Shown here in pieces: positions 475 to 7,376 of a stretch of 64,000 nt of DNA (position 1 is its first letter; each line of letters starts with the position of its first letter). Source of the stretch: an uncultured Verrucomicrobiae bacterium (GTDB taxonomy: Bacteria > Verrucomicrobiota > Verrucomicrobiia > Limisphaerales > Palsa-1400); NCBI GenBank assembly GCA_963764165.1, contig CAVXRD010000001.1, positions 1,408,001-1,472,000 on the forward strand, read 5' to 3'. The notes beneath the pieces are model-generated. The model was not told where the DNA came from, searched no databases, and saw only the letters and a program-made list of their open reading frames with translations. Position numbers and translations under genes: made by a program.

Positions 475-535
475 TTTTAAGATATATGAAACTTAAAAGT
501 ATTAGTTGCATAGAAATCAGCCCATGTGCTAGTTT
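475..535 (+). promoter_or_regulatory. Putative sigma70 promoter with upstream palindrome
   Basis: TTGCAT (506-511), 18 bp, TG-n-TAGTTT (530-535); AT-rich upstream with TTTTAAG-N10-CTTAAAA (475-498). Confidence 0.5.
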
Positions 536-547
536 CTGACCCGTTCG

Positions 548-718
548 ATGAAATCTTGCTTAAACACATCAGCCGCAAGCTGGCCGACAATGCGAGTCGC
601 AACCGCGACACGGCATAGCCGTCCATGCCGCGGCTATGTTTCTAGCCTTGGACTATCCCTGGCCTCCATTGGAAAACAAATTGAAGGCAATTGGAATAGA
701 CTGGCGGTAAGCAGGTAA
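548..718 (+). CDS. Putative attenuator leader peptide (56 aa)
   Basis: ATG 548 to TAA 716-718 (MKSCLNTS...GNWNRLAVSR); last codons are complementary to the terminator 5' arm. Confidence 0.55.
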   Translation: MKSCLNTSAASWPTMRVATATRHSRPCRGYVSSLGLSLASIGKQIEGNWNRLAVSR

Positions 719-740: not shown

Positions 741-777
741 AACCCTGCTTACGAATCGTAGGCAGGGTTTTTTGTTT
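741..777 (+). terminator. Intrinsic terminator of attenuator
   Basis: 13-bp stem AACCCTGCTTACG/CGTAGGCAGGGTT, loop AAT, then TTTTGTTT; rival helix GTAAGCAGG (707-715) with CCTGCTTAC (744-752). Confidence 0.8.
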
Positions 778-790
778 CCCTAATATGACC

Positions 791-1061
791 GAATGAACAA
801 TCCGCAACGAAAGGTGAATAGTCAGTGAGAATAGGAATCGCGACGTCTAAATGATGTCCAGTGGCGGCAAATTGAAAAACGCGAAGACGAGTCTTGACTG
901 GTCACCGGTGTGGTGTGCCGACGAACCGTCCGCCTCGGTGCCGCAAAATACAAATCGAATTTTACATACAAAAGGCTTCCAAGGAGGTGTGCCTCTAAAC
1001 ACCGAAACAGCCGCCGTGAATCCGCGGGTTGATATCGCAAGATAGCAAGAGGTGTTTGTTC
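791..1061 (+). ncRNA. Candidate ~270-nt structured ncRNA, family not recognised
   Basis: Ends pair (791-799/1053-1061); nested helices, GCAA tetraloop, possible GGCGGC/GCCGCC pseudoknot; no convincing ORF. Confidence 0.55.
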
Positions 1062-1072
1062 TTTGTTGAGAT

Positions 1073-1111
1073 GGGCTGGGAGATCATTGAGTCTCTCGGC
1101 CCTTTTACTTT
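1073..1111 (+). terminator. Hairpin plus U-tract (terminator or processing site)
   Basis: GGGCTGGGAGA/TCTCTCGGCCC stem followed by TTTTACTTT. Confidence 0.55.
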
Positions 1112-1152
1112 CCGTGCGCGGGAATCTCCCGCGCGATCGCGCACACACTTAT

Positions 1153-1225
1153 GAGCCGCGCGCCAGCTTGAGCAGCCGAGTCTCCAAAACTTAGCAACCC
1201 GGGGCAGCACCGGGGCGGCTCGCCA
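1153..1225 (+). tRNA. Non-canonical tRNA-Trp(CCA)-like gene
   Basis: Acceptor GAGCCGC/GCGGCTC, anticodon loop CTCCAAA, T-stem CCCGG/CCGGG, G discriminator and encoded CCA; T-loop GGCAGCA and D-arm are atypical. Confidence 0.75.
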
Positions 1226-1430
1226 CTCATTTGAACGCCAAATTATTAACCCAAGGAAATCCCATGAAAGTTACCCGTCGCTACCAGAGTCAGTTGCTGT
1301 AAAGCAGAAGCTACAAACCTTGCCGCAGAATTCGATTCCGGCCCATCGCGAAATTGAAACTCGTGTTTCGTCCCGGCAATCGATTCTGCATTCGCCCGCA
1401 ATGCAAGCCGTCCGGCAGATAGATAAAACC

Positions 1431-1575: not shown

Positions 1576-2706
1576 ATGAACACCATCGAAGAAACTGCCA
1601 CGCGCGTGATTGCCTCGCCCAGCGCCTGGATCGAAGGCGAGGCGCTTCGCCAATTCTATGCCGTCGCAAAGTTTGACGGCATGCGCCAGGCCGTCGCCTT
1701 CCCGGATTTGCATCCGGGCAAAGGTGTGCCGGTGGGCGCGGCTTTCGTGACCGACAGCTTGATATACCCGCACCTTATCGGCGGCGATATCGGGTGCGGC
1801 ATGGCTCTCTTCAAGACGGATTTGCTTCGCAGGAAAGCCCGCCTCGACCGCTGGGCCGGATTGCGCTTCGACCTGGAGCATCGGTGGGAGGGCTCCGTCG
1901 GCGCATGGTTGGGCGCGCGAAATCTCGAACCCACCGAGTTCGATGACGCGCTCGGCACCATCGGCGGCGGCAATCACTTCGCCGAGTTGCAGGCCATCGA
2001 GAAGGTAGTCGATGCCGACGAACTGGCGATGCTTGAGCTGGGCAAGGAGGAACTCGTCATGCTCGTCCACAGTGGTTCGCGCGGATTTGGCGAATCAATT
2101 CTTCGCGCGCACGCAGCGGAACACGGCGGCAACGGCGTAGCTCCTGAATCAATCGCCGGAGAGACATATAGGCGTGGTCACGATCACGCCGTCCGTTGGG
2201 CCAAAGCCCATCGCGAACTCATCGCGCATCGATTCGCTTCGGCGCTCGGCGCGGAGGCATCGCGCATCTGGGACGGCTGCCACAATAGCATTACGCGGCA
2301 GGAAGCCGGCGGCGAAGAATTGTGGATTCACCGCAAGGGAGCCGTTGCTTCGGACAGCGAGTTCGCCGTCATTCCCGGTTCGCGCGGCTCATTCAGTTAT
2401 CTGGTGAAGGCAACTGGCGACGGCGAGAGCCACGCCTGGTCGCTGGCGCACGGCGCGGGCCGCAAATGGTCGCGCAGCGACGCGAGGATTCGGATGCGCG
2501 AACGCTTCAACGCCCCGCAATTGGAGCAAACGTCGCTCGGTGGCCGCGTCATCTGCGAAGAGCGCGATCTGCTCTACGAGGAAGCGCCCGCCGCCTACAA
2601 AAACATTGAGGCAGTGGTGCGGGATTTGGTCGATGCCGGACTCATCTCCGTCATCGCGGCACTCCGCCCGCTCCTCACCTACAAAACGCGCAAGCTCCGC
2701 CGATAG
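1576..2706 (+). CDS. rtcB: RtcB-family RNA ligase, RtcB2 (release factor H-coupled) type
   Basis: PDLHPGKG, GDIGCGM, GTIGGGNHFAE, HSGSRG, HRKGA, SLAHGAGR, EEAPAAYK; 376 aa and WIEGEA N-terminus typical of RtcB2. Confidence 0.92.
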   Translation: MNTIEETATRVIASPSAWIEGEALRQFYAVAKFDGMRQAVAFPDLHPGKGVPVGAAFVTDSLIYPHLIGGDIGCGMALFKTDLLRRKARLDRWAGLRFDLEHRWEGSVGAWLGARNLEPTEFDDALGTIGGGNHFAELQAIEKVVDADELAMLELGKEELVMLVHSGSRGFGESILRAHAAEHGGNGVAPESIAGETYRRGHDHAVRWAKAHRELIAHRFASALGAEASRIWDGCHNSITRQEAGGEELWIHRKGAVASDSEFAVIPGSRGSFSYLVKATGDGESHAWSLAHGAGRKWSRSDARIRMRERFNAPQLEQTSLGGRVICEERDLLYEEAPAAYKNIEAVVRDLVDAGLISVIAALRPLLTYKTRKLRR

Positions 2707-3508: not shown

Positions 3509-4329
3509 GGCCTGTTAACACTAATTGACATTTTATAGGCGACAAGGCAAAATGGCTGGGTGGAGCTTACAGAGAGTCAATATCAGCGGGTTGCTGATTG
3601 TCTGCCGCGGCAGCGCGGCAACGTGAGCATGACCAATCTGCAACTTCTCAACGCCCTGCTCTATGTGGTGGAGCATGGGTGCAAATGGCGCGGCCTGCCA
3701 AAACATTTTGGCAACTGGCATACGATCTACACCCGCATGAACCGCTGGAGCAAAGCGGGCCTGCTGGATCGAGTCTTCGCCCGGCTCCAGCAGGAGCAAA
3801 TCCTGGCGATCCGGATCGAGCAAGTCTGCTTGGACAGCACGACGATCAAGGCTCACCCCGACGGCACCGGGGCGCTAAAAAAAACGGCCCACAGGCCATC
3901 GGGCGCTCCCGAGGCGGTTGCACCACCAAAATTCATCTGGTTGCCGCGAATGCCCAGTGCGCCTTAATGCTCAAGCTTTCCCCCGGCCAGGCGGGGGACG
4001 CGCCGCAAGGACGCGAGCTTTTGCAGGCGGGCGGGCCGGTTCCGGCAGGGCTTCCACTCATCATGGACAGCGCCTATGAAGGGGACGAGACTCTGCAACA
4101 GGCGCGGGAATTGGGCTACGCTCCAGTGGTTCCTCCTAACCCCCGACGCTTAAATCCGTGGGAGTATGACCAAACCCTTTACCGACGCCGCAATGAGATT
4201 GAACGGCTTTTTCGCCGACTCAAAAGCTACCGCCGAGTCTTCAGTCGCTTCGACAAATTGGATGCGTTGTACTCCGGATTCGTCGTCCTCGCGCTCATCG
4301 TGGAGGCGTTACGTTAGTGTTAACAGGCC
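3509..4329 (+). mobile_element. IS5-family (IS427 group) insertion sequence
   Basis: Perfect 16-bp IRs GGCCTGTTAACACTAA/TTAGTGTTAACAGGCC flanked by CTAG on both sides (3505-3508, 4330-4333). Confidence 0.93.
3560..4317 (+). CDS. IS5-family transposase, orfA/orfB joined by -1 frameshift
   Basis: orfA (GCKWRGLP, DSTTIKAH) and orfB (GRSRGGCTTKIH, DSAY, YRRRNEIERLF) join at an A8 run (3877-3884); TTGACA-17-CAAAAT promoter at 3525-3553. Confidence 0.9.
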
Positions 4330-6564: not shown

Positions 6565-7293
6565 TCAATCATTTCCCTTGCTCAGTCTGTTCCAGATGAT
6601 CTCCGTCTTCTGAGAGTCCTCGACAAGCTCATTTGCTTCCTTTCCAATCGCAAAAGCATTGGTTTCGTAACACTCGATGCAACCCTCCAGAAAATTGCGT
6701 ACGGAGGGGAACCACCGGTAATAGCGAACCTCGGTAAAACGGTAAAAGAAAGCGCCGGAGCCTTCTGCCCTGGATGGATCATAGAAATACCCGTCGCCAG
6801 TCCGATCGTCAAAAACCTGAATCCAGTCCTTCGTGTAACCCGACAGAAGGGAAAACGCTCTGGACTGATGCCACTTTGCGTCTGCCAATTGTCCTTGCAG
6901 CACAAATTTCTCCTCAACGAATTCATCCAGCGGCACAAATCGCTGCCCCGGCAGAAAGCTGCAGACATTGCTTCGCGATTGCCCGTTGTGCCACCGATAG
7001 AGACTGCGAAGGTCCGGTGGCAGTTTGAAGTGCCCCTGCGTTTCCAGTGTGGAAATTTGCGCTTCAGAAAGTCCCGGTTGAAGTGATGCCAGAACGCTCG
7101 GGGCGTTGCTCGACAAACAGGCGGTTAATCGCGCCAGTAATTCTTCAGCGCTTTGGCTTACAACAGGCGGCAGCCGGCCCGGCTTCGGATAAAAGAAGAC
7201 TTCTAGCATTGACGGAATTGAGCAAATAAGGACGCAAATAACCAGCACCACCGCAATACCCGAAACGACAATCCATTTTCGACGGCCCGTCAT
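6565..7293 (-). CDS. SMI1/KNR4 family protein with N-terminal TM anchor
   Basis: LQPGLSEAQISTLE...LPPDLRSLYRWHNGQ pattern. Confidence 0.75.
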   Translation of the reverse strand: MTGRRKWIVVSGIAVVLVICVLICSIPSMLEVFFYPKPGRLPPVVSQSAEELLARLTACLSSNAPSVLASLQPGLSEAQISTLETQGHFKLPPDLRSLYRWHNGQSRSNVCSFLPGQRFVPLDEFVEEKFVLQGQLADAKWHQSRAFSLLSGYTKDWIQVFDDRTGDGYFYDPSRAEGSGAFFYRFTEVRYYRWFPSVRNFLEGCIECYETNAFAIGKEANELVEDSQKTEIIWNRLSKGND

Positions 7294-7376
7294 GTTTTCA
7301 ATTCATTAACGTCATTGCGGAAACATCTCAACAAAGAACAAACACGTCGCTAAGATTCCTGACGGCACAAGATTTT

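Follow-up and report, generated by a model that had tools for sequence, protein, structure and literature searches.

A conserved leader ahead of spare-tRNA and rtcB genes in Verrucomicrobiota carries a candidate pseudoknot/three-way-junction switch

The stretch of DNA analyzed here (the window, 64,000 nt) contains at positions 791-1061 the second half of a conserved Verrucomicrobia leader (about 506-1110) that precedes spare-tRNA and rtcB genes. Long arrays of spare tRNAs aid bacterial survival under translational stress, and the leader would give the arrays of Verrucomicrobiota a compact, widely conserved RNA control element. Since the element sits between a uORF-linked terminator and tRNA/rtcB genes, we regard it as a cis-acting leader module and not as a free-standing ncRNA, and it very probably acts in cis as a regulator. 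Its conserved structure is concentrated in the 3' ~100 nt (966-1070), where the short sequence ACACC can pair with either of two partners. We lean slightly towards the view that the 791-1061 module is a transcription gate, in which ACACC toggles between a pseudoknot (predicted ON) and a helix, P1, followed by a U-rich tail (predicted OFF).

The leader is present in three Verrucomicrobiota orders. A DNA search with positions 600-1300 found a match in 30 of 61 related genomes, typically spanning about 605-1115, and the window's own genome carries a second leader copy, 78% identical, heading a tRNA array. An exact 21-base pattern occurs in at least 119 stretches of a contig collection (74 of the 80 titles among the matches listed are Verrucomicrobiota) and also in 4 viral contigs; the viral contigs L167, L168 and L170 hold the full leader together with arrays of 13-18 called tRNAs. 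Of the 117 matches to a relaxed metagenome/viral pattern, 53 were canonical copies, about 10 were variants or divergent, and about half were due to chance; annotated phages gave no match to the element, nor did a third viral pattern. Searched with a covariance model, the window's order gave matches in 43 of 151 genomes, the order that includes a Luteolibacter genome in 59 of 151, and the order that includes Chthoniobacter flavus in 18 of 151; a sample of 150 further genomes of the phylum, with 25 candidates scored in each, gave none.

Gene context was read from the 94 of 142 distinct pattern-found copies that have at least 1200 nt downstream: same-strand tRNAs lie downstream in 75, a small basic ORF in 31, rtcB in 12, and at least one of these in 79, while 7 of the 15 loci that have none of them are truncated stray copies. 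Among model-found loci with enough flank, 48 of 52 have tRNAs within 1.5 kb downstream on the same strand. In the window, the leader is followed by a reduced array and rtcB:

1113..1146 (+): a hairpin, likely a remnant, where intact arrays have tRNA-Gly; the genome's second copy has tRNA-Gly there
1153..1225 (+): an atypical tRNA-Trp(CCA)-like gene with an encoded CCA end, a short D arm and the T loop GGCAGCA
1264..1422 (+): an ORF of about 50 aa from the small basic family found in the arrays; the window copy has an in-frame stop at codon 13
1576..2706 (+): rtcB, an RtcB2-type RNA ligase (NF007153 and TIGR03073 above cut-off; PF01139)

The tRNA-Trp-like gene, called by neither ARAGORN nor Rfam, folds into a cloverleaf-like shape and has an anticodon loop in common with housekeeping tRNA-Trp. 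Array tRNAs have altered T loops, GTGCAAC and GGCAGCA (L046 / G000:C2 array; window 1153-1225). The small ORFs form an Arg/Lys-rich family inside short-leader arrays, often just before rtcB, with intact members in L002:127-279 (-) and elsewhere; an intact copy gave no Pfam match, and the protein is a candidate RNA-binding or ribosome-rescue factor. The window's rtcB is the only one found in the genome (a single tblastn match). RtcB2 is described, in the available portions of PMC9304027 and PMC13166195, as a 16S rRNA repair ligase acting with PrfH; no PrfH scored above cut-off in this genome. Just upstream of rtcB lies a long imperfect hairpin (1429-1545), probably a repeat element, and at 3560-4317 two overlapping ORFs resemble, by inspection, a frameshifted IS5-type transposase.

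The first stage of the leader lies upstream of position 791:

506..535 (+): predicted promoter with a TTG-type -35 and a TG-extended -10-like box, from conserved TTG, TG and TA columns before a conserved ATG
548..718 (+): ORF1, a 56-codon leader ORF whose homologues usually have all 20 amino acids
707..715 (+): antiterminator strand GTAAGCAGG, whose complement is the 5' arm of terminator 1 (744-752); the ORF1 stop comes directly after
741..777 (+): terminator 1, a hairpin (741-769) and U tract

The promoter, which would make ORF1 nearly leaderless, is read from the columns of the homologue alignment and was not called by a consensus scan. In 73 of 90 loci, a stop lies within -4 to +10 nt of where the best antiterminator strand ends, and 67 of these 73 are open for at least 40 codons, against 54 of 197 for other frames. 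All 20 residues occur in 66 of 87 distinct ORF1 peptides versus 5.5% expected from base composition, kin not being independent, and in 99 of 129 members of a larger, overlapping set whose related sequences are likewise not independent; the window's own copy has 18 amino acids, D and F being missing. A terminator-1-like hairpin is found upstream of 166 of the 185 motif copies with enough flank, and 148 of the 185 have both terminator 1 upstream and the tail downstream.

Computed folds of the nascent RNA to 756 place the antiterminator at a probability of 0.93-1.0 when there is no ribosome or the P site is at 690 or before, and at 0 once the P site reaches 700 or beyond; it thus forms unless a ribosome stands within about 20 nt of the ORF1 stop. 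Stage 1 needs kinetic control because terminator 1 always wins at equilibrium on the full-length RNA, again by computation. These are features of a leader-peptide attenuator: a uORF overlapping an antiterminator, exclusive terminator and antiterminator (computed only), and matching codon content. We infer that ribosome stalling anywhere in the all-20-amino-acid ORF1 would open terminator 1.

The second stage begins with two short frames that meet inside a hairpin:

809..854 (+): SD-like GAAAGG (809-814) and a 9-codon mini-ORF, GTG 825 to TGA 852-854, from frame conservation
842..858 (+): hairpin GACGTC/GATGTC around the TGA/ATG overlap, hiding the ORF2 start; 99.5% of cells paired, 2 compensatory cells
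854..1045 (+): ORF2, 63 codons, in frame with a further ATG at 851; running across the 3' motif, it stops in helix P3

The mini-ORF has 8-9 codons in 37 of the 42 short-leader loci with an in-frame TGATG junction, its peptide is not conserved, and the hairpin that hides the next start has a computed probability of about 0.97 unless covered by a ribosome. From TGATG to the motif the distance is mostly 128, 131, 134, 137 or 143 nt, all one frame. This ORF2 frame is open for at least 30 codons in 71 of 78 short-leader loci versus 41 and 15 for the other frames; an ORF runs across the P0 bulge in 58 of 59 (41.4 expected), and the stop falls 54-63 nt past the motif start in 37 of 42. ORF2 is conserved in length and frame and not in sequence: substitution does not differ between the codon positions (0.44/0.44/0.43), and single changes number 762 synonymous versus 2223 non-synonymous. 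Since the peptide bears no sign of selection, ORF2 looks like a track for the ribosome. We rejected a conserved peptide or a second all-20 sensor on the same equal substitution and on 0 of 42 copies with all 20 residues, and an arrest peptide, 'KGFxGGVP', because the same bases lie in other frames or are untranslated in long-leader homologues.

A clear ORF2 is confined to the short-leader group. Among long-leader loci, 71 of 87 have an ORF passing through the bulge with 68.1 expected, i.e. no excess, the GGC frame is open in 11 of 32, and the spacer holds other hairpins. As such ORFs are no commoner than chance, the trigger cannot in every case be a ribosome on ORF2. Long-leader homologues such as L110, L121, L127 and L167 have extra conserved hairpins between terminator 1 and P0 that are absent in the window type. 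A TTTACA-like hexamer, at 960-965 in the window and 7-13 nt before P0, occurs in 81 exact copies and as TTTCCA in 27; it is possibly a pause, cleavage or slippery site.

The 3' motif is built from five elements:

973..994 (+): P0, 973-976/991-994 and 977-979/983-985 with a 5-nt bulge, from covariation
986..1003 (+): pseudoknot helix (H-type), bulge GGTGT (986-990) with ACACC (999-1003), from compensatory changes
997..1057 (+): P1, AAACACC (997-1003) with GGTGTTT (1051-1057), which closes a three-way junction and excludes the pseudoknot
1004..1028 (+): junction GAAACAG and P2 (1011-1014/1024-1027) with a T-loop-like G-UGAAA loop, from covariation; the window has UGAAU
1029..1048 (+): P3, TTG/CAA and a variable TATC-GCAA-GATA hairpin, with double changes in all three base pairs; 100% and 99% paired

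On 27 pattern-found rows, the fraction of paired cells, the compensated cells and the covariation score all exceed every one of 500 shuffles and all slid controls; the count of pairs with a double change does not rise above shuffles (218 of 500). The same three measures exceed all 500 shuffles and the slid controls on 64 model-found rows, in an alignment fitted to the model. The outer P0 pair changes from A-U to G-C in 9 of 27 pattern-found and 15 of 64 model-found rows and is unpaired in 22 of the 64, and a P2 pair changes from G-C to A-U in 9 of 27; in distant homologues, P0 carries an inserted variable hairpin.

Our first pattern had fixed the bases of ACACC and its partner, so variants were sought via model matches and a P2-only pattern. 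Among 253 distinct copies, the pseudoknot helix is canonical in 238, has one wobble change in 4 and one mismatch in 3. It reads GGCGC:GCGCC in 7 copies of one lineage, with two compensated pairs and P1 kept by wobbles, and AGTGA:TCACT in 1 copy, again with two compensated pairs. P1 is paired in 95.5% of cells of the 64 model-found rows and is compensated as TCACC:GGTGA in one lineage (L228/L229), where the pseudoknot has a mismatch. Because compensatory changes are seen in each, both ACACC pairings appear to be selected, a reading of the sequences that rests on three evolutionary events or lineages. In energy the two nested states lie 1.4 apart, at -18.1 kcal/mol with P1 and -16.7 with the GGUGU:ACACC helix (ViennaRNA, by which the pseudoknot as such is not scorable). 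Folding runs under a ribosome shadow gave no clean two-state pattern for stage 2, with P1 probabilities of 0-0.47. We dropped the idea that the 5' flank of P0 pairs with the tail, since inspection of the alignments showed no covariation for it. At one locus (L030), about 60 nt have been inserted into the linker of the pseudoknot; the insertion, which has a duplicated CTAAAC end, interrupts the motif, and this locus lacks the tail.

The conserved loops (GAAA, UGAAA) and a covariation between position 6 of the junction and the base after P2 (A with G in 212 of 238 copies, G with C in 26) exceed the needs of a simple terminator and point to a partner outside the model. For this reason two other explanations stay in play. 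In the first, 966-1070 is a ligand-sensing riboswitch whose T-loop and A-rich junction bind a tRNA elbow, as a T-box would without its specifier, or a small molecule; binding would set the balance between pseudoknot and P1, and ORF2 would be a lineage-specific add-on. Near-invariant unpaired residues across three orders speak for it, as does the persistence of the motif where ORF2 is not evident, and the genes under control are tRNAs with altered T loops. Moreover, the A-rich bulge, the 4-bp stem and the UGAAA loop resemble the T-box apex, whose T-loops are given as AGAGA and UGxRA in the available part of PMC7583486. Yet the motif has no T-box match in Rfam, and UGGNACC lies within 150 nt downstream in only 4 of 134 copies. 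In the junction, which is AAACA or AAAGA, the final A covaries with the base following P2 as if the two were paired, unlike the free fifth residue of a T-loop; the UGAAA loop itself, found in 180 of 253 copies, varies to AGAAA, CGAAA or UGAAU in 57. We consider a riboswitch of this kind unlikely.

Two features follow the motif:

1057..1069 (+): U-rich tail TGTTCTTTGTTGA; its first 9 nt are identical to a boxA-like site of this genome's rrn spacer, and the 3' end differs
1073..1110 (+): hairpin 2 (hairpin at 1073-1102) with a weaker U tract

The tail reads TGTTCTTT in 80 of 135 copies and CGTTCTTT in 17; the core YGTTCTTT is present in 97, and TGCTCTTT or TGATCTTT in 6 more. In the Luteolibacter-type group the tail is GTTTTCATT, and the relative L123 has an ordinary rrn boxA. 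The same G-Y-U-C-U-U-U core stands at boxA-like positions of rrn operons in four genomes, this one included. Missing from the tails is the A-rich 3' end of boxA (AACA or GAAA), in place of which they mostly have GTTG (58) or ATTG (17). As a U tract, the tail carries 6 U within 8 nt in 79 of 104 copies, close to the mean of 6.3 for terminator 1 (105 loci) and above the 5.1 of hairpin 2 (53 loci). P1 and the tail together would make a terminator with a branched loop, an unusual form. Hairpin 2 is absent or lacks a U tract in many distant homologues, and an antiterminator against it was rejected, a 3-bp pairing being the only candidate. The genome encodes nusB and rho. A second Rho-like gene (G000:C2:2562652-2563740) falls just below the family cut-off (492.9 vs 509.45 bits). 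The end of P1 and the boxA-like tail (1052-1073, +) recur as an exact 22-nt inverted duplicate at 7324-7345 (-), ahead of an SMI1/KNR4 gene (6565-7293, -), and nowhere else in the genome.

It is the tail that suggests the second explanation, a nut-like loading site (a structured boxB equivalent with a boxA) that would serve processive antitermination or help the tRNA array to fold. P1 would then be the active state, or both pairings mere folding intermediates, and the tail would cause no termination. A very divergent metagenome contig, L290, fits this idea: it has a 53-aa ORF1 with all 20 amino acids, terminator 1, the A-rich junction, P2, P3, the boxA-like tail, a hairpin and a tRNA-like array, and has lost P1. 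Against it, the boxA is incomplete, selection on both ACACC partners favours a functional switch, and the truncated stray copies stop at the base of P1, as would an RNA ending there. A pure loading site therefore strikes us as rather improbable.

These stray copies, about ten ~95-nt P0-P1 motifs (L028, L034-L042 and L044, in the three genomes G007, G019 and G020), have low-complexity micro-repeats upstream, end at GAGGTG(T), the P1 base, and lack both terminator 1 and the tail. The repeat family upstream of them has 42 matches in G007. They fit an RNA that ends at the P1 base and hint that they might even be copies of a discrete RNA.

The preliminary description had proposed an unrecognized, multi-domain structured RNA of ~270 nt with a possible pseudoknot, bounded by two terminator-like hairpins. 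Both hairpins are real (741-769 and 1073-1102), and so are the complementarities it listed (791-799/1053-1061, 813-817/902-906, 819-824/895-900, 838-841/881-884, 842-847/853-858, 859-862/871-874, 863-868/1010-1015, 992-996/1048-1052 and the TATC-GCAA-GATA hairpin), with 909-921/935-945 matching in part and its remainder not. As one fold, the 270 nt do no better than chance: z is +0.73 (148 of 200 shuffles as good), +0.04 on the other strand and -0.34 for 791-1061. Across 32 homologues the proposed helices, taken without 909-945, are paired in 63.7% of cells, the same 63.7% as shuffled (262 of 500 shuffles as high), and 240 of 500 shuffles reach their covariation score. The helices at 842-858 (99.5%) and 1033-1044 survive and the others do not; the GCAA hairpin at the latter is real, and its columns slip in the alignment owing to variable length. 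The loop pseudoknot suggested at 863-868/1010-1015 is paired in 60.7%, and 1010-1015 is the 5' strand of the covarying P2. What held, then, is a conserved, structured RNA with a pseudoknot, at 986-990/999-1003; its extent, its fold and its free-standing nature did not.

The view that no known family is involved was borne out. Nothing in the window reaches an Rfam gathering score, with chance matches only around the element; among 4227 families, the highest-scoring overlap with 791-1061 lies on the opposite strand, at 14.2 bits (E 2.1), and Rfam on 14 homologous loci returned tRNA matches only. The MISL, raiA and Y RNA models are presumably among those 4227. ARAGORN and Rfam found no tmRNA in the window, and the genome's tmRNA is on another contig. 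Likenesses to a Y RNA stem, a tmRNA tag, RNase P and HDV/pistol-type ribozymes were rejected, their bases being not conserved or without a model match. By the tests run, the element is not a T-box, GOLLD, ROOL or tmRNA.

An independent ncRNA of ~270 nt flanked by two terminators, or a stable trans-acting RNA made by processing, has the two bounding hairpins and the hint from the stray copies of the 3' ~95 nt on its side. No promoter-like site was called after terminator 1, however, the 5' 170 nt keep a frame and have no conserved long-range structure, the distance from terminator 1 to the motif varies among homologues from about 130 to >400 nt, and the element rarely occurs apart from stage 1 and the tRNAs downstream; we find this explanation hard to credit. 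Least probable of all is a processing or stabilizing signal without any switch function, by which the 5' end of the pre-tRNA array would be set. This would suit an element directly preceding the first tRNA and the conserved TTTACA-like stretch before P0 and would leave the mutually exclusive helices, the mini-ORF and the start-hiding hairpin unexplained.

How could the transcription gate that we favour operate? In the short-leader group, a ribosome finishing the mini-ORF would open the start-hiding hairpin and restart on ORF2. Normal passage and release on ORF2 would melt P0 and the pseudoknot, P1 would form, and RNA polymerase would stop in the U-rich tail. With no ribosome, with a stall before P0, or with a ribosome remaining at the stop codon beside the 3' strand of P1, no P1 would form and transcription would continue. 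After read-through, the tail likely doubles as a boxA that loads NusB:S10 and carries the polymerase beyond hairpin 2 and the Rho sites of the untranslated array. For polarity, trigger and boxA use taken together, which we infer, we see the chances as about evenly balanced. More speculatively, and with considerable doubt on our part, the whole leader might be a two-stage sensor of translation health for tRNA operons and a new class of riboregulator: stage 1 would sample all 20 aminoacyl-tRNAs, stage 2 would read ribosome termination and restart or bind tRNA elbows via a double T-loop, and the terminator tail would become a Nus-loading boxA once read through. If true, this would add another natural role for the tRNA-elbow clamp and an antitermination site of the rrn type that is regulated. 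The exact helices, the natural compensatory variants and the two small ORFs allow clear predictions.

What is new here is the pseudoknot/junction switch with its boxA-like tail, and a riboswitch-like orphan motif absent from Rfam. The literature searched yielded no description of this element; the supplementary motif tables of PMC5737381 and PMC11109978 may hold a match. Like the T-box riboswitch, as far as the available portions of PMC7583486 and PMC4810234 describe it, the motif lies in the leader of translation-related genes and has an A-rich bulge, a short stem, a UGxRA-type loop and a bulged helix feeding a switch; unlike it, it has no UGGN antiterminator bulge or Rfam match and uses a pseudoknot. 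Nor, by inspection of the alignments, is there an internal loop with a codon varying by downstream genes, as in a specifier loop. Like GOLLD and ROOL (PMC5737381, in its main part), it is a conserved RNA with structure that neighbours tRNA clusters and is also found on viral contigs, but it is much smaller, apparently translated, without an Rfam match and tied to a terminator/antiterminator leader. The rrn boxB-boxA likewise places a structured element and then G-Y-U-C-U-U-U ahead of a long untranslated transcript, with NusB and Rho present here too; compared with the boxA consensus (both from the accessible text of PMC13753749), our tail is without the A-rich 3' end and is embedded in a switch downstream of uORFs.

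The nearest relatives in function are the spare-tRNA arrays of cyanobacteria. In the parts of PMC8421152 and PMC10272220 at hand, the trn operon of Anabaena PCC 7120 and the L-arrays are silent spare-tRNA arrays with rtcB, linked to translational stress, and Verrucomicrobia are named among the phyla with long tRNA arrays; the Anabaena array and rtcB are induced by such stress (PMC8421152). Its control is there attributed to promoter repeats and the TrcR repressor, and that portion of the text mentions neither 'leader' nor 'attenuat', whereas here control appears RNA-based; in the sources as available, this cyanobacterial repressor is the sole control that we found described for spare-tRNA arrays.

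Leader-peptide transcription attenuators include trpL, hisL, pheL and the multivalent ilvGMEDA. Together with antibiotic-responsive uORF riboregulators, they share with this leader a uORF that ends on the antiterminator strand, an intrinsic terminator and predicted opening by stalling. In contrast to both, the Verrucomicrobiota leader would control tRNA genes and rtcB, its ORF1 covers all 20 amino acids, and it adds a second module in which stop-start coupling and a sequence-free ORF accompany the proposed pseudoknot/three-way-junction switch.
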